Part shown: in pieces, positions 1,431 through 64,000 of the stretch | Layout: each line of letters opens with the position of its first letter | Position numbering within the stretch: position 1 is the stretch's first letter | Notes under the pieces: model-generated | The model's input: the letters and a program-made list of their open reading frames with translations, nothing else | What the model was told of the DNA's origin: nothing | Databases searched by the model: none | DNA from: Bacteroidia bacterium | GTDB lineage: Bacteria; Bacteroidota; Bacteroidia; AKYH767-A; OLB10 | DNA: 64,000 nt | Direction of reading: 5' to 3' | NCBI GenBank assembly: GCA_016788165.1 | Contig: JAEUTH010000004.1 | Coordinates: forward strand, 2,522-66,521 | Translations under genes and position numbers: made by a program

Positions 1431-2267
1431 ATGTTTTTTAATTTGTTTAGAAAAAACCCGGTTGCCGCTTCTGATGACATGACCTTTTTACAGCATCTGG
1501 AAGCATTGCGTTGGCATTTAATGCGCGCTTCAATTGTGGTTATTCTAATTTCAATTGCCGCATTTTTTCAAAAGGAATGGTTGTTCGACACGGTTTTATT
1601 TGGCCCTAAGAAAGCCGATTTTCCTACCTATAAATTTATGTGCTGGCTTGCCGAAAAACTATCCATTGATGATTTATGTATTTCGGAGATAAGCTTTAAG
1701 TTGCAATCAACAGAAATGTCGCAACAATTTACCTTGCACATGTGGGTGGCATTTTATGCCGGCCTGGTTATGTCGTTTCCGTATGTGTTGTGGGAGTTGT
1801 GGCGTTTTATAAAACCTGCTTTAAGTGTAAAGGAAAAACAATATACCACCGGTGTGGTGTTTGTATCGAGCCTGTTGTTTTTTTTAGGTGTTTTATTTGG
1901 TTACTATGTAATAGCACCTCTGTCTATTAATTTTTTGGGTAGTTATAGTGTGAGTACCGAAGTACAAAACATTTTTACCATTGATTCATTCATCTCCATA
2001 ATTACCATGCTTACGCTTGCAACCGGTGTCGTATTTCAATTACCCATTTTGGTTTTTTTTCTGGCAAAGATTGGATTGTTAACCCCCGGTTTTATGCGGG
2101 CTTACCGCAAGCATGCCTTAGTTGTAATTTTGATAATTGCAGCCGTAATTACACCATCGCCCGATGTTACATCGCAAATATTGGTTGCCTTGCCATTATA
2201 TGCATTGTATGAAATTTCGATTGGCATAGCCGCTTTGGTGGTATCGCGCAGCAATGCAAAAAAGTAA
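1431..2267 (+). CDS. tatC: twin-arginine translocase subunit TatC
   Basis: TatC signature FLQHLEALRWHLMRA and a 6-TM profile across 278 aa. Confidence 0.85.
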   Translation: MFFNLFRKNPVAASDDMTFLQHLEALRWHLMRASIVVILISIAAFFQKEWLFDTVLFGPKKADFPTYKFMCWLAEKLSIDDLCISEISFKLQSTEMSQQFTLHMWVAFYAGLVMSFPYVLWELWRFIKPALSVKEKQYTTGVVFVSSLLFFLGVLFGYYVIAPLSINFLGSYSVSTEVQNIFTIDSFISIITMLTLATGVVFQLPILVFFLAKIGLLTPGFMRAYRKHALVVILIIAAVITPSPDVTSQILVALPLYALYEISIGIAALVVSRSNAKK

Positions 2268-2327
2268 CTGTTACTATAAATGCACCTTACTTTGTTGAAG
2301 CTTTTTTCAGCAACAGCCAACTTTTAA

Positions 2328-4448
2328 TCAGGATATTTTACCCCAATTGCCTTTTTGTGCAGCTAGGTTATTCAATGTATTTCTTACTACTTTATTTTCG
2401 GGCTGGGTAAGCGTGGCATCCGTTTCGAGCAGGTTTATTGCTGCCTGCCTTGCCTGTTCTAATATGGCTTTATCTTTAGGCAAATCGGCTAAACGCAAAC
2501 TCATGTTACCACTTTGTTGTGTGCCTTGTATATCGCCCATACCGCGCAATTTTAAGTCAACTTCGCTTATAACAAAACCATCGTTGGTATTGCACATAGT
2601 TTGCAAACGTTGACGGGCATCAACACTCAACTTATAATCGGCCATTAAAATGCAATACGATTGATACGCCCCGCGCCCTACTCTGCCCCGTAGCTGATGC
2701 AATTGCGATAAACCAAAGCGCTGCGCACTTTCAATAACCATTATGGATGCATTAGGAACATTAACACCTACTTCGATAACGGTTGTTGCAACCATAATTT
2801 GCGTTTTGCCGCTTACAAAAAGTTGCATTTCAAAATCTTTATCAGCCGGCTTCATTTTACCATGTACAATTGAAACTTTGTATTCGGGTTGCTGAAAATA
2901 TTGCACCACAGCTTCGTAGCCTTGCATAAGATTCATGTAATCCATTTTCTCGCTTTCATCAATCAATGGATATACTATATACACTTGGCGGCCCTTTTTA
3001 ATTTCTTCTTTTAAAAATCCGAAAACGCGCAAACGGTTATTCTCAAACCTTAAATGCGTAACTATTGGCTGACGCCCGGGTGGCAATTCATCAATAATAC
3101 TTACATCTAAATCGCCATACAGTGTCATGGCTAAGGTGCGTGGTATGGGTGTTGCTGTCATAACCAAAACGTGCGGCAACACCGTTTTGCTTTTGCTCCA
3201 AAGTTTATAGCGCTGTTGCACACCAAAACGATGTTGCTCATCAATTACAGCTAAACCCAAATCGGCAAAAACAACCTGATCTTCAATTAATGCATGTGTA
3301 CCAATTATTAAGTTTAAATCATTGTTTTCCAATGCTTCTAAAATGTGTTTACGCTCTTTGCTTTTGGTACTACCTGTGAGCAATGCAATAGAAACAGGCA
3401 TGTTTCTTAATAAAGCCGTAATACTTGTATAATGTTGTTGTGCTAAAATTTCGGTAGGCGCCATAATGCAAGCCTGCATGCCATTATCGATGCATAACAA
3501 CATACACATAAGTGCTACTATGGTTTTACCACTGCCTACATCGCCTTGCAAAAGCCTGTTCATTTGATGGCCTGTTAATGTATTTTGTCTGATTTCTTTT
3601 AGTACACGTTTTTGTGCCTGGGTTAAATCGAACGGCAGATGTTGTTTATAAAAAGTATTAAACAAATCGCCCACTTTCGAAAACACCCTTCCTCTGCTTT
3701 TATGTGTACGCACTAACTTTTGTTGCAGCAGTTGTATTTGCAAGTAAAACAACTCATCAAATTTTAAACGGTAACGCGCTGTTATTAACGATCTTTCATC
3801 ATCAGGAAAATGTATTTGAATTAATGCCTGCCGTAGCGAAATTAACTTTGTTTGATTTATTATTGTTGTAGGCAAACACTCGTCAAGTTCGGGTGGTAGT
3901 TGGGCAATTAAATTTTTTTGCATGCGCCAAAATGCTTTACTGTCTAATCCACGTCCTTTGCTTTTTTCTGTTGTTGGATACATGCTTTGCATGTTGCCAC
4001 TTAAGGTTTCATTAAAAGTGGCCAGCAATTCTACATCGGGATGCACCAAATTAATTTTGCCATTAAAGGCAGTTGGTTTTCCAAACACCACGTAATCAGA
4101 ACCGGCTTTTAATGTTTCGCGCAGGTATTTTATTTGTTGAAACCACACCAAATCAATGCTGCCTGTATCGTCACTTAATGTTGCAATTAATCGTGTAGCA
4201 CGTTTGTCGCCTGCAGTTGATATGGTTTTGATTTTACCTCGTAATTGTACAAAAGGAGCTTCTTCGGTAAGTTCGTTAATTTTATAGAATCTGCTCCGAT
4301 CAACCCACCGGTAAGGGAAATGCAGAATTAAATCGCCATAAGTTTTAATGCCATATTCGGACTGTAACAACTCAGCACGTTGTGGCCCGGCACCTTTAAG
4401 GTACTTTACATCCTGATTAAAAAAAACTGATGCGGGCAGGTAACTCAT
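2328..4448 (-). CDS. recG: ATP-dependent DNA helicase RecG
   Basis: 706 aa with an N-terminal wedge/OB region. Helicase motifs GDVGSGKT, DEQHRFGV and TATPIPRTL, plus the C-terminal HQLRGRVGRG motif. Confidence 0.9.
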   Translation of the reverse strand: MSYLPASVFFNQDVKYLKGAGPQRAELLQSEYGIKTYGDLILHFPYRWVDRSRFYKINELTEEAPFVQLRGKIKTISTAGDKRATRLIATLSDDTGSIDLVWFQQIKYLRETLKAGSDYVVFGKPTAFNGKINLVHPDVELLATFNETLSGNMQSMYPTTEKSKGRGLDSKAFWRMQKNLIAQLPPELDECLPTTIINQTKLISLRQALIQIHFPDDERSLITARYRLKFDELFYLQIQLLQQKLVRTHKSRGRVFSKVGDLFNTFYKQHLPFDLTQAQKRVLKEIRQNTLTGHQMNRLLQGDVGSGKTIVALMCMLLCIDNGMQACIMAPTEILAQQHYTSITALLRNMPVSIALLTGSTKSKERKHILEALENNDLNLIIGTHALIEDQVVFADLGLAVIDEQHRFGVQQRYKLWSKSKTVLPHVLVMTATPIPRTLAMTLYGDLDVSIIDELPPGRQPIVTHLRFENNRLRVFGFLKEEIKKGRQVYIVYPLIDESEKMDYMNLMQGYEAVVQYFQQPEYKVSIVHGKMKPADKDFEMQLFVSGKTQIMVATTVIEVGVNVPNASIMVIESAQRFGLSQLHQLRGRVGRGAYQSYCILMADYKLSVDARQRLQTMCNTNDGFVISEVDLKLRGMGDIQGTQQSGNMSLRLADLPKDKAILEQARQAAINLLETDATLTQPENKVVRNTLNNLAAQKGNWGKIS

Positions 4449-4491
4449 TTCGCAAATAAAATGATATCATAATTATGATTAAACATAATTG

Positions 4492-5850
4492 CTACTGCAA
4501 CTCGGCATTTTTTTTGGCTGCTTCGTAATTGGGTGGATTTAATAATTTATCATATCCCACAGGCGCACTAAAATGTAAAAACAATTGTTTGTATGCTTTT
4601 GCAGTCATGCTGTCGTAGTGTAAAACATTACGTTTATATTGATAGGTGGTATATAAATTCCAAACGGTTAATACCATTAACAGCAGGAGTAAAAATTTGC
4701 GATTAACTTGTAAAGCCTGCTGTAAAATACAAGCTAACGGCAAAGCAAGTAAGGGATAAAAATCAATGAGTGGCCGCATACCATAACTGCCGCCATACCA
4801 CCAACACCACCAACATGCAGTAATGTAAAGCGCTAAAAAAAACACAACCGTTACCGGCACAAATAAGTTATTAAGCCTCCGCGGCATTAATGTCAAACCC
4901 ATAACAGCTAAAAACATTACAGGAGTATAAATAAACCAGCCTTTGCGAAAGCTGAACAGGATTTGGTAAAGTTTAGGGCTTAGCCAAAAAAACCCTTCAT
5001 CGGTATAGGAATAATAAATCCATTTACCCGTTTGCTGATGCCAATATAAAACCTGTGGCAACACAATAAGCATACAACAAACTACTAATGTTATCCAATG
5101 CCGCTGCTGCAAAACCAGGTGTTTTATTTTTTGAGCGAAACTTTTTAAATCGGTTACGTTATATAATAGTGGAAACAAAATCCATATTAAATTAGTGGGC
5201 CTGATTAATGCAAGTATGGCAATAGTAAATCCAATAGCAACCATATACTTATACAAGGGCCTGCGGTGCCATTGTATGGTGTAATAAATTAAAGCGCATG
5301 CCAGGCAAAAATTAAGCATGTGTACACTGCCGCCTTCAACTGTAACATAACAAGTAACATTGGTTGTTAATGCAACAATTAAAAGTGTAAGTGCCGTAAC
5401 GCTTTCATCAAAAAATGATAACAAAACCATACGTAAAATACACAAGGCCATTACAGCATAAAGCAATGTAAATAAAGCGATGGCAAGATGATACGGTGTT
5501 TCAAAGCCGGTTCGGTTGGGTTGCACTACTTTCATATAGGTATCGGCAACAATGAATGCGGGCAAATACATAATGGCCCATCCCATAGTCATTTTAAATA
5601 CCGGTTTATTAGTATGCGATTTATGATGCCAATAAGCGTTGGCAGGTACTATAAAATTTGTGTCGGATAAAAATTGCAACCCCAAATCATGCTGAATAAA
5701 AAAAGCCGGCAAATAGGAATAGTAACTTACAGCATCGCTTACAATAACATTTTGCTTTTTATAATAGCCTAAATTTAAAATAATGCACAGCCAAATTATA
5801 GCTACGGCAAAAACCGATACAAACGATTTGCTTTTAAATTTACCTATCAT
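4492..5850 (-). CDS. polytopic integral membrane protein, possible GT-C-fold glycosyltransferase (ArnT/PMT-like); function unknown
   Basis: 452 aa with about 10 or more predicted TM helices and basic/aromatic loops. No soluble catalytic domain was recognised. Weakly similar in topology to the membrane protein at 47273..48733. Confidence 0.4.
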   Translation of the reverse strand: MIGKFKSKSFVSVFAVAIIWLCIILNLGYYKKQNVIVSDAVSYYSYLPAFFIQHDLGLQFLSDTNFIVPANAYWHHKSHTNKPVFKMTMGWAIMYLPAFIVADTYMKVVQPNRTGFETPYHLAIALFTLLYAVMALCILRMVLLSFFDESVTALTLLIVALTTNVTCYVTVEGGSVHMLNFCLACALIYYTIQWHRRPLYKYMVAIGFTIAILALIRPTNLIWILFPLLYNVTDLKSFAQKIKHLVLQQRHWITLVVCCMLIVLPQVLYWHQQTGKWIYYSYTDEGFFWLSPKLYQILFSFRKGWFIYTPVMFLAVMGLTLMPRRLNNLFVPVTVVFFLALYITACWWCWWYGGSYGMRPLIDFYPLLALPLACILQQALQVNRKFLLLLLMVLTVWNLYTTYQYKRNVLHYDSMTAKAYKQLFLHFSAPVGYDKLLNPPNYEAAKKNAELQ

Positions 5851-23088: not shown

Positions 23089-24498
23089 TTATTTACCACG
23101 TAAAAAAGTGTCGATTACAATTTTAAAAATAGAAGGCCGGCCTTTGGCGCGTAGCGCTTCTAAATCTTTTTTGGCTTCGGCATCACCAAAACCATCGGCA
23201 ATGGTAAAATGCTCAGTACCCCATGTTGCTTGCGAGCTTACTACCTTTACCATAAGCGCATGCATACGTGCAGCAAGTTCGGGGCAATTGGCACGTGATT
23301 TTTGATAACGTATATAGGACCAGGTTGCAAAAACAAAATCAATTAAATTATCAGCAATTACCATCAATATTAAAAAGAACTTGCTCTTTTCCTGCATGGG
23401 TACTTTGTGTACGTTTTCGAAAAAAGTTTCATCAATGTCGCTGTTATATCTGCGTATGATGGCATATACATAACTTATTTTGGGCAAGCCCGAAAACTCT
23501 TTTATAAAACTAACCAACGGTGCCGATAATGCCGGTGCAATTGGGTTTATAAATGGTGTACCATCGGCATTTTTTGGGTAAAACTGTACTTGATATATTT
23601 TTTCCTGCAAAGCTTTGCCTTCGGCATAAGTTGTTGGATTAATTTCATCATGCAAACCTAAGGCGCGTCCGTATAAATGCCAGGTATAATAATAATCGTT
23701 TAATACTTCATCATCCGGCTTTTCGCCCGAACTGATAATGCCGTCTATAACTTCCTGACTAAACGTATTTATGGCAAACAACATATCTTGTTGATTAATT
23801 GGTGCGCCCCATTTTTCCTTTTGCCAAACATTGCTGTTCCAAAAATCTGTGCTTATTTCTACGTCCTCTTTTATACTGATTTTTTTTTCTTCTACAGCCG
23901 ATTTTAAATTTATACGTGCTCTTATCATAGCATGCACCAATCGTAATTTCTGAATACTTTTTATGGCGCTGCCATTGGGCTCAAATGCATTTGGATCCAT
24001 TACATCTAAAACAAAATCCATAGTAGCTAATATGCGCCTGTGTGGGTATTGAGGCAACATACGTGTGCTACCTAAAACCTGTGTACTGTTGTATGCTGCA
24101 TATTGTTTTAGCAATGAGCGTACAGCCAAAATCATGGTACCCTCTATGGCATAATTATTAAAAAAAAAACATGCATTTTTTATCCGTTGTTTTTGCGCAT
24201 CCGTAAAATTAAAATGACTGGTATCGGCAAAATAATTATTCAAAATGGTTACAATGTTTGCATGCTCACCGCTATCCGTGCTTTTTTGCATTCTTTGTGT
24301 TAAATCTGCAAACTTTCTTTCATCAATTGTATCGCTGTTTTTGCTTATAGAAGCTAAAATTTGGTAGGCTTGATGTCCATAAGGAGATGCAACCAAAGCC
24401 AATGCTACTTTATCGGCCTCAGGGTCTTGCATTTGCCTGAATGTTGCAAACCATTTATCGAAATCAGGGTGTGATAATATGGGGGTTGGATTAGTCAT
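23089..24498 (-). CDS. hypothetical protein, possibly an MpaB/DUF2236-like all-helical oxygenase-family protein (tentative)
   Basis: 469 aa. Ends 8 nt upstream of the kinase-cyclase gene on the same strand, so likely co-transcribed. No confident motif beyond H/R-containing helices (KLRLVHAMIRARIN). Confidence 0.4.
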   Translation of the reverse strand: MTNPTPILSHPDFDKWFATFRQMQDPEADKVALALVASPYGHQAYQILASISKNSDTIDERKFADLTQRMQKSTDSGEHANIVTILNNYFADTSHFNFTDAQKQRIKNACFFFNNYAIEGTMILAVRSLLKQYAAYNSTQVLGSTRMLPQYPHRRILATMDFVLDVMDPNAFEPNGSAIKSIQKLRLVHAMIRARINLKSAVEEKKISIKEDVEISTDFWNSNVWQKEKWGAPINQQDMLFAINTFSQEVIDGIISSGEKPDDEVLNDYYYTWHLYGRALGLHDEINPTTYAEGKALQEKIYQVQFYPKNADGTPFINPIAPALSAPLVSFIKEFSGLPKISYVYAIIRRYNSDIDETFFENVHKVPMQEKSKFFLILMVIADNLIDFVFATWSYIRYQKSRANCPELAARMHALMVKVVSSQATWGTEHFTIADGFGDAEAKKDLEALRAKGRPSIFKIVIDTFLRGK

Positions 24499-56149: not shown

Positions 56150-56456
56150 GCTAATAGTACCTTTTTATGGGTGTATTTATTTTTTGAGGCGGCAAATATG
56201 AAAAAATTAAAACGAAAATTTAGTGTCAGCCTATGTATTTAAGCAATATTGTCAATGGCTTGTATTTCGTTGGTTCATCAGTAAAAAAATCAGCTATAAA
56301 TTATTACTATGCATATTATCAAATATTAAAAGCATCAACAATCCACCTATCTCTTATAAATGTTATTGCCTCATTCTATTCATTGTGCTGCCACTCGATT
56401 GTACCGTGGTAAAACCTTTATATATTGTGCATCCTAATTATACTATTACCCTTAAG

Positions 56457-58511
56457 ATGAAAAAACTGATTTTTACAGCTTACTTATTGCTTCTGTTTTT
56501 CAATAGTTATTCGCAATGTAATACCAACACCAGCCCGGGCAACTCTTCGGCTACAGGTTGTGTTTGTAAGGATGGCTCGCAACAATGCGATTTGTTGCCG
56601 GACTTAAAAATAGGGCCGCCACCATTTTATGATAGCGGCACATTTGGTATCATAGAATACGCGCAAAGTGGAAATATTGATCCGGCAGACAATGGAAAAC
56701 TTAAAGTTACCGTAAGTACACCTAATATCGGACATGGCGCTTTGGAGATACATGCAACACAGATTTTTGTTTGTGATACGGATACTTTTTTTGGTACACC
56801 ACCTGCTCAATGTGCTAATGGAACTTTTCCACGCATCCTAATTAATCAACGCATTTATCATAAAAACAACAATACGATGTCGTTTTATGATGTACCGGCT
56901 GGCACCATGACGTACCACCCTACGCATGGCCACATGCATGTTGACGATTGGGGCACCTATACTTTACGAACTGCTACAAGCAACCCCGACCCTATGACTT
57001 GGCCCATTGTTGGCGCTGGTGCCAAGCTGGCTTTTTGTGTAATGGATTACGGCACTTGTGATGATTATCCCAATCATTGCCAAAACGACCAAGGCATAAC
57101 CTTAAACAATATTGACTTTCCAAACTTTGGATTAGGTGGTGGTATTTTTGCCTGCGACCCGCAAGTACAAGGCATTTCATCGGGTTTTACAGATATTTAT
57201 TGGACTTCGTTAGAAGGTATGCATGTTAACATTCCGCCTTGCTTACCAAATGGCACTTATTGGTTGGTATGTAAACTCGATCCGAATAACAATTTTATTG
57301 AAGAAAATGAAAACAATAATGTTTTTGCCATTCAATACACACTTACCAAACAAGACGGTGTAGCCAGTATTAATAACCTGGGTAATACACCTTATTTGTG
57401 CCCGGGCAATAGTGTAGTGCTTAGTGCTAGCGATAACGGCAGCAGTTACATGTGGTCAAGTGGTCAAACCACACAAAATATTTCAGTTAACTTACCGGGG
57501 GTATATACCGTAAGTTATACAAGCGCTTGTGGCAATACCAGTACAGCTTCTTATAATTTACAAGCATTATCATTAGCAACACCTGCTGTCAATAATGTTA
57601 ATTTGCCAGTGCCGGGCACAGCTACACTTACGGCTAATGGCCAACACGTTATAAAGTGGTATGATGATGCAATGGCGACCAATTTAGTGCATGTTGGCAA
57701 CACGTTTACTACGCCATTTCTAAACAATAATACAGCCTATTATGCGGCCGATGTATTTTTAGCACCAGGCCAATCGGGCTTTGTTGGGCCTGCAAATAAT
57801 ACTGTTGGTGCATCGGCATTAAACAATAGTAACCAACGCTATCTGGTTTTTTCGGCATATAAACCATGTAAGATAAATTTTGTTACCGCATACGCAGGCA
57901 ACCCGGGCAACAGAACCATTGAGTTACGCGATGCAAATGGCAATGTACTTCAATCAAAAACCTTTAGCCTTACTACTGGTGCCAACCTTTTAAACCTTGA
58001 TTTTACGGTTAACCCCGGAGTTAATTATCAATTGGGTTTATCGGCTACTTCTATTGCCGATTTGCATCGAAACAGCAGTGGTATAACATATCCCTACCAA
58101 TTAAACAATTTACTGGATATCACAGGCTCATCAGCCGGCAGTGCGTATTATTACTTCTTCTATAACTGGCAAGTATCAGAACCCGACTTTGAATGCAGCA
58201 GTCCGCTTGCAGTTGGCCAAGTTACTATTGGCCCAGTAGGAATTAATGACTTCGATTTTGAACGAACCATTCAGGTATTTCCCAACCCTACAAACAATAT
58301 GGTACAAGTTGCATTTGCAGTAAATGAATTTACCGAAGCTAAAATTATAGTATCAGATATTACCGGTAAACAGGTGTATAGTTATAGTAACAATCAAAAG
58401 GCCGGTGTTTTTAATCACCATTTAAATTTAAGCAAACTGCTTGCCGGTGTATATCAACTTTCTATTTACGTAAATAACAAACCATACCATCAAAAACTAA
58501 TTAAGTACTAA
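56457..58511 (+). CDS. T9SS cargo protein with N-terminal lysyl-oxidase (LOX, copper/LTQ amine oxidase) catalytic domain
   Basis: Signal peptide MKKLIFTAYLLLLFFNSYSQ. LOX motifs: copper His triad YHPTHGHMH (LOX has WHSCHQHYH). AKLAFCVMDYGTC (LOX has HKASFCLEDTSC, including the LTQ Lys). GFTDIYWTSLEGMHVNIPPCLPNGTYWLVCKLDP (LOX has [32 protein letters not shown], including the LTQ Tyr). C-terminal type-A T9SS CTD (VFPNPTNNMVQVAF...GVYQLSIYVNNK). The ORF is open from 56223, but 56457 gives the signal peptide. Confidence 0.75.
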   Translation: MKKLIFTAYLLLLFFNSYSQCNTNTSPGNSSATGCVCKDGSQQCDLLPDLKIGPPPFYDSGTFGIIEYAQSGNIDPADNGKLKVTVSTPNIGHGALEIHATQIFVCDTDTFFGTPPAQCANGTFPRILINQRIYHKNNNTMSFYDVPAGTMTYHPTHGHMHVDDWGTYTLRTATSNPDPMTWPIVGAGAKLAFCVMDYGTCDDYPNHCQNDQGITLNNIDFPNFGLGGGIFACDPQVQGISSGFTDIYWTSLEGMHVNIPPCLPNGTYWLVCKLDPNNNFIEENENNNVFAIQYTLTKQDGVASINNLGNTPYLCPGNSVVLSASDNGSSYMWSSGQTTQNISVNLPGVYTVSYTSACGNTSTASYNLQALSLATPAVNNVNLPVPGTATLTANGQHVIKWYDDAMATNLVHVGNTFTTPFLNNNTAYYAADVFLAPGQSGFVGPANNTVGASALNNSNQRYLVFSAYKPCKINFVTAYAGNPGNRTIELRDANGNVLQSKTFSLTTGANLLNLDFTVNPGVNYQLGLSATSIADLHRNSSGITYPYQLNNLLDITGSSAGSAYYYFFYNWQVSEPDFECSSPLAVGQVTIGPVGINDFDFERTIQVFPNPTNNMVQVAFAVNEFTEAKIIVSDITGKQVYSYSNNQKAGVFNHHLNLSKLLAGVYQLSIYVNNKPYHQKLIKY

Positions 58512-59942: not shown

Positions 59943-61493
59943 ATGATTAATAAAAAACTTGCCATGCTGCTAACCAGCATGCTTACCTATACAGGTTCAA
60001 TGGCGCAATCTGTATTTCAAAAAACTTACACGCAAGGTATTAACACCGAATTCACACAGATTATCAATACATCTGATGGAGGCTTTGCAAATATTGGTTC
60101 ATTTAATAACTCCAATGATGATATTTGCTTAGTTAAAACTGACGCTATTGGCAATGTACAGTTTACTACCACTTTAACAAGCCCAACCTTAGAAAACGCA
60201 AAAGGCGTTATTCAAACAAACAGCGGAGATTATATAATTTGTGGTAACATTACCATTAACAATACGAATGCTATTTACCTGGCAGCCATTAATGCTTCCG
60301 GTAGTTTATTATGGCAAAAATATTATGATGCCGGCAAAACAGATGTTGCAAACAGTATAAAATTGGCAGCAAATGGCGATTTTATAATTGCAGGTTATAC
60401 TACCTCAGTTGGTATTGCTTATCCTAAAGGTTTATTAATGCGTACCGATGCTGCCGGAAACCTTTTATGGTCGAAAGCTTACACACAAATACACACTCAA
60501 ACATTTAATAAAGTTATCGAAGCAAGTGACGGAAGTCTTATTGCTGTGGGTAGCCAAGTTGCTTTCGGAAATACCGACTACGATTGGGTTGTTTTGCATA
60601 CCGATAGTGCAGGCACATTAATTTGGAACTATACCTATGGTGATTTAAGCGATGAAGAAGCTTATGATATAATACAGGTTGGTGGATATTATTATGTTAC
60701 CGGTTATACTGCATCGGCAGGTGCCGGTAGTCGCGATATGTTTGTGATGCAATTAGGTTTGGCAGGTAATATTTTAGGCGGTACGGTAATTGGTACTGAA
60801 AAAAGCGAAACTGCTTTTAATATCCACTATTACGATAATACATCGTTGGCTATAACCGGAGTTTCGGAAATTACCAGTGCAGCCGGTAATAAAGAAGTTG
60901 GAACCATACTTCGTACTGACTTCTTATTAAATCCCTATCAGGCTACCTATTTGGGTGATTCAAATGCGGTTTTTAATCCCATATCTTCTGTTGTTAACGC
61001 AACAGGTAAAATAGCATTAAGTGGAAAATACAAAGCACCCGGCAATACCAACTTCGAAGGGTTACTGATGCAAAACAATTTGGCTTACAGTGCAGCATGT
61101 AACGAACTATATCCTACAATTTTAACTTCAAACTATATTCCAAACCATAATGCACAAACCACTGAATTATTGGTAACTTTTGCCACACAGGCTGCAAATT
61201 TAGTTGCCAACAATCCAACCATCACACTCAATACGTTGTGTTTCAGTACAGGATTAGAAAATAAAAACAAGCATTTGGTTGGCTATCCAAATCCGGCAAC
61301 TGATTTTATAAATTTAGATGCAATTTGGCATGGATCTTCAATTCAAATCAGTAATTTGCAAGGAAAGCTTAGTATAGAAGCAACTTTATCAAACGATTAT
61401 AAAATTGATGTAAAATCGCTACAGCCCGGTCTTTATATAGCAACAATAAATAAATACCAAGAGCAATTTCGATTCAAATTTGTAAAACAATAA
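59943..61493 (+). CDS. T9SS cargo protein, beta-propeller-like repeat protein with C-terminal T9SS sorting domain
   Basis: Signal peptide (MLTYTGSMAQS). Repeated S/T-D-G-x-hydrophobic-x-x-G modules (SDGGFANIG, NSGDYIICG, ANGDFIIAG, SDGSLIAVG, VGGYYYVTG). Type-A CTD (GYPNPATDFINLD...GLYIATINKYQEQFRFKFVKQ). Confidence 0.7.
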   Translation: MINKKLAMLLTSMLTYTGSMAQSVFQKTYTQGINTEFTQIINTSDGGFANIGSFNNSNDDICLVKTDAIGNVQFTTTLTSPTLENAKGVIQTNSGDYIICGNITINNTNAIYLAAINASGSLLWQKYYDAGKTDVANSIKLAANGDFIIAGYTTSVGIAYPKGLLMRTDAAGNLLWSKAYTQIHTQTFNKVIEASDGSLIAVGSQVAFGNTDYDWVVLHTDSAGTLIWNYTYGDLSDEEAYDIIQVGGYYYVTGYTASAGAGSRDMFVMQLGLAGNILGGTVIGTEKSETAFNIHYYDNTSLAITGVSEITSAAGNKEVGTILRTDFLLNPYQATYLGDSNAVFNPISSVVNATGKIALSGKYKAPGNTNFEGLLMQNNLAYSAACNELYPTILTSNYIPNHNAQTTELLVTFATQAANLVANNPTITLNTLCFSTGLENKNKHLVGYPNPATDFINLDAIWHGSSIQISNLQGKLSIEATLSNDYKIDVKSLQPGLYIATINKYQEQFRFKFVKQ

Positions 61494-61506: not shown

Positions 61507-63552
61507 ATGAAAAAACAATTCTTTGTAATAATGTTGCCTTTCCTAATAGGAAGTGCATGTGCGCAAACTTTAACCCCTGAAATTTTAATGTCGCTTAAAC
61601 GGGTTAACGAACCACGTTTATCGCCCGATGGCAGCAAAATTTTATACCAGGTTCGTACTATGGATGTAGGTGCAAATACGGGCAATACCGATATTTATAT
61701 TATGGATGCCGATGGAAAAAATGTAAAACCATTGGCAAACACCGCTACAAATGAAACCTCGGCAAAATGGATTGAACAAGGCAATAAAATTGCTTACCTA
61801 ACCGAAACCGGAGGCGAAACACAACTTTTCGAGATGTTACCCGATGGTGGCAATAAAACACAGGTTACGGCCCATAAAGGCGGCATAACCAATTACGGAT
61901 ACTCGAAACAAGGCAATTATTTTTGGTTTAGTGCCGATGTTAAATTGGAACAAAACCCTGCCGAAATTTATCCTGACTTACCTAAAGTTAACGGTGCGCG
62001 CATTATTGATGGATTAAACTACCGTCATTGGAATGTTTGGAGTGATTATACCTACTCGCACATTTTTGTAGGACGTAAAGTGGGTGGGAAACTGATAAGC
62101 ACCAACGACATTATGAGCAATGAGCGTTTTGATGCACCCAATAAGCCCAACGATGGTGATGAGCAAATGGCATTTAGTGCAGACGAAAAATACCTGGCTT
62201 ATGCCTGTAAAAAATTACGCGGAACCGATTACGCAGTTAGCACCAACACCGATATTTATTTATTCGATTTAACTGCCAATACCACAACCAATATTAGCAG
62301 CAATATGCCGGGATATGACAACATGCCTGTTTTTGCTCCCGATAACAAATCCATACTTTGGTTAAGCATGGCAGAGGCTGGTTACGAAGCCGACCGTACT
62401 CGTTTAATGCAATGCGATTTAGCTACAAAAAACACCAAAGAGTTGCTTTCCAACTTTGATTACAGTATTGGCAAGTTCGATTTTAATGCTTTGGGCAACA
62501 AAATATATTTCATAGCAGGCGTAGAAGCAACCGACCAGCTTTTTAGTTTAGATGTTGCATCAAAAAGCAAAAACACCTTACGCAAAATTACCAATGTAGA
62601 AGCCGATATTACCGACTTGAGCATTGCCACCAAAAATAAAGAAGATAAAATAATTGTTGCCCTTATGCGCCACGATTTACCTACTGAAATTTTTAATGTT
62701 GATTTAAAAACCGGAAACACATTACAAATCTCTGCTGTAAACAAAGCACTGTTAAGCAACATAAAAATGGGCAAGTCGCAAAAACGTATGGTTAAAACCA
62801 GCGATGGCAAAGCCATGCTAACGTGGGTAATATACCCACCCGATTTCGACCCGGCAAAAAAATACCCTGCATTACTTTATTGCCAGGGCGGGCCGCAAAG
62901 TACCGTTTCGCAATTTTTTAGTTACCGATGGAATTTTGAACTTATGGCCGCTAATGGTTATATTGTAGTGGCACCTAACCGCAGGGGATTGCCATCTTTT
63001 GGCGAAACCTGGAATGATGCCATTAGAAACGACTGGGGCGGACAAGCCATGACCGATTTGCTTTCGGCTATTGATGATGTGGCCAATGAACCATACGTTG
63101 ATAAAAACAAGTTGGCTTGTGTGGGTGCAAGCTTTGGTGGTTATTCTGCATTTTGGTTAGCTGGTCATCACAACAAAAGGTTTAAAGCTTTTATTGCCCA
63201 TTGCGGTGTATTTAATTTAGAATCAATGTATGGCACCACTGAAGAAATTTGGTTTACAAACACCGACATGGGTGGCCCGTATTGGAACAACCCCAAACCA
63301 AAAAGCTATACACAATTCTCGCCCCATAATTTTGTGCAAAACTGGGATACCCCCATGCTGGTTATCCATAATGAAAAAGATTTCCGTGTGCCCTTATCGC
63401 AAGGCATGGAAGCTTTTACAGCGGCCCAATTGCGTGGCATACCCAGTAGGTTTTTATACTTCCCTGACGAAGGGCATTGGGTTCAAAAACCGCAAAACTC
63501 CATTTTATGGCAACGTGTGTTTTTTGATTGGCTGAACAAATATGTAAAATAA
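61507..63552 (+). CDS. S9-family serine peptidase (prolyl oligopeptidase / acylaminoacyl-peptidase-like) with N-terminal beta-propeller
   Basis: Signal peptide. TolB-like propeller repeats. Catalytic Ser motif GASFGGYSA, with Asp and His in the C-terminal alpha/beta-hydrolase domain (DFRVP...EGHW). Confidence 0.85.
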   Translation: MKKQFFVIMLPFLIGSACAQTLTPEILMSLKRVNEPRLSPDGSKILYQVRTMDVGANTGNTDIYIMDADGKNVKPLANTATNETSAKWIEQGNKIAYLTETGGETQLFEMLPDGGNKTQVTAHKGGITNYGYSKQGNYFWFSADVKLEQNPAEIYPDLPKVNGARIIDGLNYRHWNVWSDYTYSHIFVGRKVGGKLISTNDIMSNERFDAPNKPNDGDEQMAFSADEKYLAYACKKLRGTDYAVSTNTDIYLFDLTANTTTNISSNMPGYDNMPVFAPDNKSILWLSMAEAGYEADRTRLMQCDLATKNTKELLSNFDYSIGKFDFNALGNKIYFIAGVEATDQLFSLDVASKSKNTLRKITNVEADITDLSIATKNKEDKIIVALMRHDLPTEIFNVDLKTGNTLQISAVNKALLSNIKMGKSQKRMVKTSDGKAMLTWVIYPPDFDPAKKYPALLYCQGGPQSTVSQFFSYRWNFELMAANGYIVVAPNRRGLPSFGETWNDAIRNDWGGQAMTDLLSAIDDVANEPYVDKNKLACVGASFGGYSAFWLAGHHNKRFKAFIAHCGVFNLESMYGTTEEIWFTNTDMGGPYWNNPKPKSYTQFSPHNFVQNWDTPMLVIHNEKDFRVPLSQGMEAFTAAQLRGIPSRFLYFPDEGHWVQKPQNSILWQRVFFDWLNKYVK

Positions 63553-63588
63553 CAGCAACGGCTGCCCAAGGGCAGCCGTTGCTGTTTC
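63553..63588 (+). terminator. intrinsic terminator after the S9 peptidase gene
   Basis: Perfect 15-bp stem CAGCAACGGCTGCCC / GGGCAGCCGTTGCTG with loop AAG. It begins one nt after the stop codon. The downstream T-tract is short (TTT). Confidence 0.65.
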
Positions 63589-63711
63589 ACCCTCCCTTTT
63601 AACTCCCCCCTTTCAACTCTCAACTCCTTTGCTATCTTTACCACTTTCAAAACCAAGTTTCCCTTAACCCTTTAATTTTATCTGTTATGTAAAACGTAGT
63701 AATGAAAAAAT

Positions 63712-63739
63712 CACACACACACACACACACACACACACA
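63712..63739 (+). repeat. (CA)14 dinucleotide microsatellite within the 5' coding end of a T9SS-cargo paralogue
   Basis: A 28-bp perfect CA tract starts 10 nt after an ATG AAA AAA TCA start at 63702. In that frame it encodes (His-Thr)n. Confidence 0.9.
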
Positions 63740-63781
63740 ACAAAAATCAGCAGTTGTGCAAGTAAAATCTTATTTATTTTA

Positions 63782-64000
63782 ATGCTAATGGCAATGCAAC
63801 TGCAAGGCCAAAGTCCTTTATGGACACAGCAATACAGCACACCTGCTTACGATGCAGGCTTTTCGGTTTCAAAAACTTTTGACAGTGGTTTTATTGTTGG
63901 CGGCATTACCACCAACGACAACAACACCAAAGACATTTTACTGATTAAACTCAATGCCGCAGGCGATACCCTGTGGACACATACCTACGGCAGCAGCTAC
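63782..64000 (+). CDS. paralogue of the 59943..61493 beta-propeller-like T9SS cargo protein, 3'-truncated by window end; signal peptide currently out of frame (see repeat 63712..63739)
   Basis: From the ATG at 63782 the frame reads MLMAMQLQGQSPLWTQQYSTPAYDAGFSVSKTFDSGFIVGGITTNDNNTKDILLIKLNAAGDTLWTHTYGSSY. This is homologous to the N-terminus of the 59943 product (SDGGF..G..NN..D..L.K.DA.GN). The upstream ATG at 63702 (MKKS(HT)n...) is in a different frame and terminates at 63780-63782. Confidence 0.55.
   Translation, partial: MLMAMQLQGQSPLWTQQYSTPAYDAGFSVSKTFDSGFIVGGITTNDNNTKDILLIKLNAAGDTLWTHTYGSSY

Follow-up and report, generated by a model that had tools for sequence, protein, structure and literature searches.

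A length-variable CA repeat in the predicted signal-peptide coding region of a multicopy Bacteroidia gene family: a candidate slipped-strand switch

To our knowledge, almost all that has been established about repeat-driven phase variation comes from host-adapted pathogens such as Neisseria, Haemophilus, Campylobacter, Helicobacter and Mycoplasma. The opa genes of Neisseria form a multicopy family and carry CTCTT pentamer repeats in their signal-peptide coding region. The lic1 locus and other tetranucleotide contingency loci of Haemophilus influenzae are reviewed, together with Moxon's contingency-locus concept, in PMC11868660, and SSR phase variation in Neisseria has been treated in general terms (PMC5320596, PMC11868660). 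In Helicobacter pylori, the outer-membrane protein genes oipA, sabA, hopZ and babB contain CT repeats within the signal-peptide coding region (PMC10564699, PMC2715451), and both states are common, with 386 ON and 150 OFF (PMC10564699). For Bacteroides, a review of phase variation names only invertase-based switching (PMC11868660).

The gene described here, from an environmental-metagenome member of the Bacteroidota, resembles oipA in layout. Both have a dinucleotide tract a few codons past the start, within the (here predicted) signal-peptide coding region; in both, the unit number decides whether the conserved end of the signal peptide is read in the frame of the start; and both belong to a paralogous family of exported, or here presumably exported, proteins whose tract number varies among strains. 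They differ in the repeat unit (CT in oipA, CA here), in the product (a beta-barrel OMP as opposed to a soluble-type beta-propeller) and in the bearer, oipA being a gene of a host-adapted Campylobacterota pathogen. Like opa, the CA family consists of scattered near-identical copies, each with its own leader tract and most of them OFF at a time, and shows signs of exchange between copies (differences between two alleles, L007 and L092, that are confined to the gene), a pattern for which chimeric assembly is a possible source here; unlike opa, its unit is a dinucleotide and not a pentamer, and the protein families are unrelated. With lic1 it shares a 5' intragenic SSR and, in several copies (L007, L091, L094 and L095), two in-frame starts upstream of the tract, reading MKNVVIMKKS with the extra ATG six codons upstream; by analogy, this double-start layout could give graded expression. 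The repeat unit and the function of the gene differ from those of lic1. The invertible-promoter switches of Bacteroides belong to the same phylum and presumably serve the same end, randomly varying the surface or secreted components of the cell, but they operate by DNA inversion, whereas the change here is one of repeat number inside a coding region.

The gene lies at the end of a 64,000-nucleotide stretch of contig JAEUTH010000004.1 that was analysed as a whole and is referred to as the window. A perfect (CA)14 tract was located by TRF at 63712-63739 on the forward strand, where it encodes (His-Thr)n in every frame. A regular-expression scan of the window recovered no other dinucleotide repeat of at least 5 units, and 0.01 occurrences of a 16-nt CA pattern are expected by chance from dinucleotide-preserving shuffles. 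The longest homopolymer in the window is an A10 run at 24160-24169, inside an intact minus-strand ORF of 469 codons (23089-24498). The onset of the tract is 10 nt past an ATG at 63702-63704, after AAA AAA TCA. With 14 units, this ATG opens a 26-codon ORF, MKKSHTHTHTHTQQKSAVVQVKSYLF, which together with its stop occupies 63702-63782, and the TAA at 63780-63782 overlaps a second ATG at 63782-63784. The long downstream ORF is in the frame of this second ATG, which is its first canonical start: the frame is closed upstream by a stop at 63665, and between that stop and 63782 it contains no ATG, GTG or TTG, the only near-start codons being ATT and ATC. When the tract is reconstructed with 13 or 16 units, ATG 63702 is joined to the long ORF, giving MKKS(HT)4-TTKISSCASKILFILMLMAMQLQG|QSPLW, whilst with 12, 14 or 15 units translation from ATG 63702 ends after 19-26 codons. 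The original prediction for this DNA had placed the (CA)14 tract 10 nt after ATG 63702 and the stop of that frame at 63780-63782, had taken ATG 63782 to be the sole start available to the long ORF and had calculated that loss of one CA unit or gain of two would fuse the frames; it had also described the long ORF as homologous to the gene at 59943. Each of these statements was borne out, the last by 31-33% identity (E = 2e-23) to the repeat domain of the T9SS protein at 59943, and everything the prediction said of the sequence itself is confirmed as accurate.

The mechanism proposed on this basis is that (CA)n, lying among the codons for the n-region of a Sec signal peptide, would serve as a slipped-strand mispairing switch. 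Translation would start at ATG 63702 and read the tract as (His-Thr)n. Where n mod 3 = 1 (13, 16 and so on), the start would be in frame with a hydrophobic core, ILFILMLMAM, a G|Q cleavage site and a beta-propeller of about 257 residues, and this product would be exported; at any other n, including the 14 units found here, a stop after 20-27 codons would leave no exportable protein. Gain or loss of CA units at replication would toggle the state, and a family of at least four copies, each with its own tract, could thereby give combinatorial variation. The tract, its frames, its length polymorphism, its conservation and the signals of selection are observed directly; we infer that switching would be reversible and would have a rate of its own, that the ON product would be exported, that the state of the tract may exert a polar effect on the T9SS gene downstream and that some selective agent would keep the sampled populations OFF.

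The case for a signal peptide is a matter of sequence features. In the 13-unit fused product, four Lys residues precede the 10-residue core ILFILMLMAM, whose mean Kyte-Doolittle value is 3.07, and the core is followed by LQG|QS, a predicted G|Q cleavage with Gln at +1. The remainder of the signal-peptide coding region, TKISSCASKILFILMLMAMQLQG, extends over 63740-63808, with the predicted signal peptidase I cut after 63808. In Bacteroidota, signal peptidase I sites as a rule have Gln at +1 (PMC5837995, PMC10653852), and the same feature is present in the 59943 paralogue (..SMA|QS) and in the neighbouring gene of the cassette described below (..CIA|QP). The earlier reading of the fused product as a Sec signal peptide is consistent with the hydropathy of its core and with the Q rule (PMC5837995). 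As judged by hydropathy, Lys count and the G|Q site, the predicted signal peptide exists only in the reconstructed in-frame state. Hydropathy computation found no hydrophobic core in the product from ATG 63782, and gene callers choose in-frame starts still further downstream, ATG 63788 or 63794, with products that begin MAMQ or MQLQ; from any of these three starts the protein would be predicted to lack a signal peptide. Across alleles the signal-peptide region has undergone conservative changes only, such as F/L and M/I swaps in the core. An ISSC sequence was considered as a lipobox and rejected, as there is no hydrophobic region ahead of it.

The mature protein is represented in the window by its N-terminal part alone (63809-64000), which is cut by the end of the window and of the contig. 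An AlphaFold model of the near-identical protein P0001 (pLDDT 86, pTM 0.82) is all-beta with 16 strands, and a Foldseek search of this model returned the propeller domain of CylK as the top PDB match (E = 2e-12, TMq 0.83), with seven-bladed lectins next in rank. In the model, four-stranded blades form a propeller, with only about 4 blades present. A Pfam match to DUF5122 fell below the gathering threshold, at 20.8 bits against a cut-off of 27. The original prediction had called the gene a T9SS cargo gene. The window copy is cut at 64000, so that its C-terminus is read from near-identical full-length copies (L007 and L091; JNK61_02825 and JNK61_11965), and these stop at ...TVSISDK, after about 257 codons, with no match to Por_Secre_tail (PF18962). 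The T9SS label is consequently unsupported for the CA-tract gene. A T9SS C-terminal domain (Por_Secre_tail, E = 1.4e-14) is found instead in a 435-codon gene that starts 5 nt 3' of the propeller gene and has its own signal peptide; a two-gene cassette in which the second gene is the T9SS cargo is therefore supported. The 257-residue product ends at the point where a relative, P0025, continues, and it may be a truncated form. Elsewhere in the window, a 762-codon ORF at 56223-58511 combines lysyl-oxidase-like, Ig_7 and T9SS C-terminal domains; it is a further T9SS cargo near the tract and contains no SSR.

Upstream, the CA-tract gene is separated from its neighbour by a perfect hairpin at 63551-63586 on the forward strand, with 17-bp arms (63551-63567 and 63570-63586, 100% complementary) and a 2-nt loop. 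This hairpin stands directly 3' of the stop of an S9 peptidase gene (61507-63552) and is likely its terminator, in which case the CA-tract gene should form a separate transcription unit. Four of six independent contigs that contain the S9 peptidase gene (Logan, JGI) end inside the hairpin, 28-32 nt past the stop, and the palindrome appears to be a recurrent break point in assembly. Beyond it, the segment 63605-63701 is the conserved upstream part of the repeated cassette and presumably holds the promoter and 5' UTR on the forward strand; this block is found ahead of the gene in four distinct genomic settings, and the cassette of L007 matches 63605-64000 of the window at 93%. An invertible promoter of the Bacteroides type was considered and excluded: apart from the terminator hairpin, the interval from the peptidase stop to the start codon holds no inverted repeat, and none upstream of the gene is conserved among copies. 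In an Rfam search no family came close to its gathering score, and the predicted fold of the leader RNA is no more stable than those of shuffled sequences (z = -0.67).

The original prediction treated the tract as a single locus. It is instead part of a repeated unit, of which there are at least four near-identical copies per genome. Protein P0015 (JNK61_00680) agrees with the window at every residue that the window covers, and the MAG that encodes the JNK61_* proteins has four differing N-terminal versions, these copies being judged from called N-termini, and one C-terminal fragment, mostly at contig ends. The repeated unit begins about 100-110 nt 5' of the ATG and covers at least 1.7 kb, reaching into the T9SS gene, and the two-gene layout is seen in the copies whose 3' end is visible. 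The cassette follows the S9 peptidase gene in the window and in contigs L001 and L003, the der GTPase gene in L007 and an unrelated 364-codon gene in L091. A further copy, in L094 (331-1194), lies directly downstream of the integrase (rve) of an IS element; that contig terminates in 53 nt that repeat part of it in inverted orientation, probably an assembly artefact. Just upstream of the L007 cassette, at 5710-5818, GGTTAGTGG-like units make up an inverted repeat that is imperfect and about 31 nt long. Its right arm also precedes the cassette in L094 but not the one in the window, and the repeat may be a boundary of the duplicated unit. In L095 (2233-2748), the match to the family continues for only about 400 nt past the leader and gives way to a different ORF, so that L095 may have arisen by recombination or represent another member of the family. 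One chromosomal locus is represented in two samples, by L007 5842-10658 and L092 1-4805. There are 56 differences between them, every one in the first ~800 nt, where the CA-tract gene and its leader lie; the next 4 kb agree throughout. The pattern points to gene conversion by a paralogous copy or to chimeric assembly of paralogues; assemblers can mis-join copies, and the assignment of alleles to loci is uncertain to that extent.

The CA tract occupies the same position in every close copy, and its length differs among them. Counts were read from consensus contigs for nine alleles from 8 samples. At the locus of the window, the window itself and L001 share a count of 14 units. L003, with 13, is in frame, its start codon being changed from ATG to ATT. 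L007, after the der GTPase gene, has 12 units and L011, with an L007-type leader, has 11; L091, in a third context, and L092, whose downstream context is that of L007, have 6 each; L094, beside the IS integrase, has 10; and L095, in which the spacer is 3 nt shorter, has 14. The original prediction held that a count of 14 in all cases would speak against variation and proposed that the repeat be compared at related loci: the observed values are 14, 14 and 13 at the window locus and 12 and 11 at a second, with 6, 10, 11, 12, 13 and 14 units represented overall. These differences arise on constant flanks. Between the window and L003, a comparison of 400 nt upstream and 261 nt downstream reveals the change from 14 to 13 units and a G to T substitution in the start codon and nothing else. 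In the pair L007 and L011, the flanks compared (61 nt upstream, 276 nt downstream) are identical and the tracts are one unit apart. It could be argued that the out-of-frame state is an error of assembly or sequencing in the repeat count and that the real gene is in frame, given that dinucleotide repeats are prone to PCR stutter and that a multicopy family breaks or confuses assemblies. Such an error is very improbable. Two independent assemblies agree on 14 units at the window locus; the 28-bp tract fits well inside single reads and is far below the contig k-mers (k = 141); the remaining ORFs of the window are long and intact, the largest of 1773 codons, which argues that the frameshift at the tract is not a symptom of poor assembly; and nine alleles in 8 samples would all need to have acquired errors that avoid the in-frame count.

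Searches beyond the family added few close sequences. A protein-based metagenome scan provided a single close relative, L011; the other 79 metagenome loci encode propeller proteins that are 35-45% identical and have no CA tracts. No match was found among viral contigs. A scan of genome contigs for (CA)6 + N8-24 + TTGTGCAAGT gave two unrelated matches only, in Metamycoplasmataceae and Methanosarcinales, which indicates that this pattern does not reach the lineage in the GTDB representative set. In L009, the contig binned to Metamycoplasmataceae, positions 3401-3773 hold a (GT)158 + (TG)28 microsatellite, which looks like eukaryotic host DNA in the bin.

Several observations suggest that ATG 63702 and the frame it would open are of functional importance. 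The fusion frame is unbroken and the start codon (ATG or GTG) is kept in eight of the nine alleles, each one or two slips away from fusion, and the frame has survived many substitutions in the leader and one 3-nt indel. The probability that a lone SNP in the window/L003 comparison would fall within the start codon is 3/661 = 0.0045, and the change to ATT is found in the sole allele whose tract is in frame; this argues that ATG 63702 is the working start and that, in that population, selection has silenced or attenuated the in-frame state. The gene bodies show purifying selection: the pooled pN/pS of the true frame is 0.16, and reading them in the two wrong frames gives 0.33 and 0.54. A different use of the leader would be as a leader ORF or unstructured CA-rich 5' element, with the internal ATGs at 63782, 63788 or 63794 reached by termination-reinitiation and the tract tuning the yield of a protein without a signal peptide. 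In keeping with this idea, the stop of the leader ORF overlaps ATG 63782 in the window (TAATG, 63780-63784), and a comparable overlap with the main ATG (ATGA) occurs in two diverged relatives, L008 and L093; an ATG is located 5-9 codons ahead of the conserved Gln in three lineages; and the tract region is unstructured as RNA. Nevertheless, we judge reinitiation to be improbable. The stop/start overlap is missing in L091, L094 and L095, and the TAATG coupling was given less weight because it is not conserved among copies. Moreover, a hydrophobic core and a G|Q or A|Q site are conserved in the main frame upstream of the internal ATGs in all lineages, including the dead copy L096, and the internal-ATG product would be without a hydrophobic core, yet its homologues are exported T9SS-type proteins.

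The diverged relatives extend the comparison further. In a lineage 61% identical at the protein level, ATGCAAAAAGTAACTACGTGTTT is followed by a perfect (CA)12 in L008, an indel-rich assembly, judging by its dnaE (DNA polymerase III alpha subunit), which is split into four consecutive ORFs at 1598-5194, and hence one with unreliable frames and repeat counts, or by a perfect (CA)13 in L093. In both, the tract is at the same position as in the window, within two different genomic contexts. The copy in L096, which represents a third lineage, is dead: it has no start codon, a conserved Trp codon has become TGA and its tract has decayed to CAACACACGCACAG. The signal-peptide region is kept in all three. 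No tract length on its own produces a fusion in L008 or L093, where a T4 run stands in place of the T5 run of L096, and this T5 to T4 change splits the signal peptide from the frame of the mature protein; with T5, the ON state of these two copies would be 11 or 14 units. The change may be a long-read homopolymer error. A second frameshift hotspot was noted at an A6 run in L007 (6484-6500, TGGCAAAAAACC), which is A7 at L008 6490 and also in the short-read-derived P0020, where the A7 state was judged from the protein (WQKNLRW); A6 to A7 truncates the product at the same place in these two lineages.

These data bear on the main rival to a switch, namely a decaying, silenced gene family, in which the repeated cassettes would be pseudogenes and the CA tract a neutral indel hotspot with no adaptive switching. 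Every allele is either out of frame or lacks a start codon, the database contains no ON protein, and L096 is clearly dead; in addition, about five family members (P0017, P0020, P0021, P0022 and P0024) have further frameshifts in the body of the gene, the product of about 4 blades looks truncated relative to P0025, and changes in the tract alone cannot fuse the frames of the diverged lineage. Against such decay stand the pN/pS of 0.16, low in the true frame only, the preservation of start codon and fusion frame in eight of nine alleles despite divergence of the leader, the coincidence of the sole window/L003 SNP at the start codon with an in-frame tract, which would be unexpected for a neutral pseudogene, and the persistence of long perfect tracts in two lineages as opposed to the decayed tract of the dead copy. 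On balance, we regard the decay of a silenced family as unlikely.

The absence of an intact ON allele, both among the nine alleles and in the protein database, sets the family apart from H. pylori, where ON alleles are common. All eight start-bearing alleles are out of frame, for which P = 0.039 under random independent phases, in a small sample of alleles that are only partly independent of one another. A query with the complete reconstructed leader retrieved no MKKS(HT)n protein from 5.8 billion clusters, and 11 of 11 members of the protein cluster start at an internal Met. Of the features expected of an SSR contingency locus, a long uninterrupted repeat, a placement that switches frame and variation in length on constant flanks are all present here, whereas the occurrence of both ON and OFF states in nature was not found in the alleles examined. 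The original prediction's reading of the tract as a contingency locus accordingly stands in part: it gains from the polymorphism, the conservation of the tract and the open fusion frames, and it loses from the lack of an intact ON allele. Taking together the polymorphism of the tract, its conservation in the 61%-identical relative, its decay in the dead copy and the pN/pS of 0.16, we consider, with modest confidence, that a slipped-strand translational switch is the best explanation.

Mechanistically, a switch of this kind would be of the known oipA or opa type, and it is apparently new for Bacteroidota. The original prediction had called the arrangement essentially undescribed for T9SS cargo proteins of environmental Bacteroidota, and in the literature searched, which may not contain every such report, no paper was found that ties SSR switching to T9SS-associated genes or to Bacteroidota. 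A wider proposal, which we put forward tentatively, is that in uncultured environmental Bacteroidia at least four dispersed two-gene cassettes, each pairing an exported beta-propeller protein with a T9SS-sorted one, gated by its own CA tract in the signal-peptide coding region and exchanging sequence with the others, are held mostly OFF in nature by strong counter-selection (by phage or grazers, for example) and so constitute a previously undescribed SSR contingency system. As a practical matter, gene callers systematically pick an internal Met in this family, and assemblers break or mis-join contigs at its copies.

If the switch is real, surface variation of the kind known from Neisseria opa or the H. 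pylori Hop proteins would exist outside host-adapted pathogens, and contingency loci would also operate in free-living Bacteroidota communities. The length of the tract at each locus would then provide a marker, readable from metagenomic reads, for selection in situ on surface and secreted proteins.
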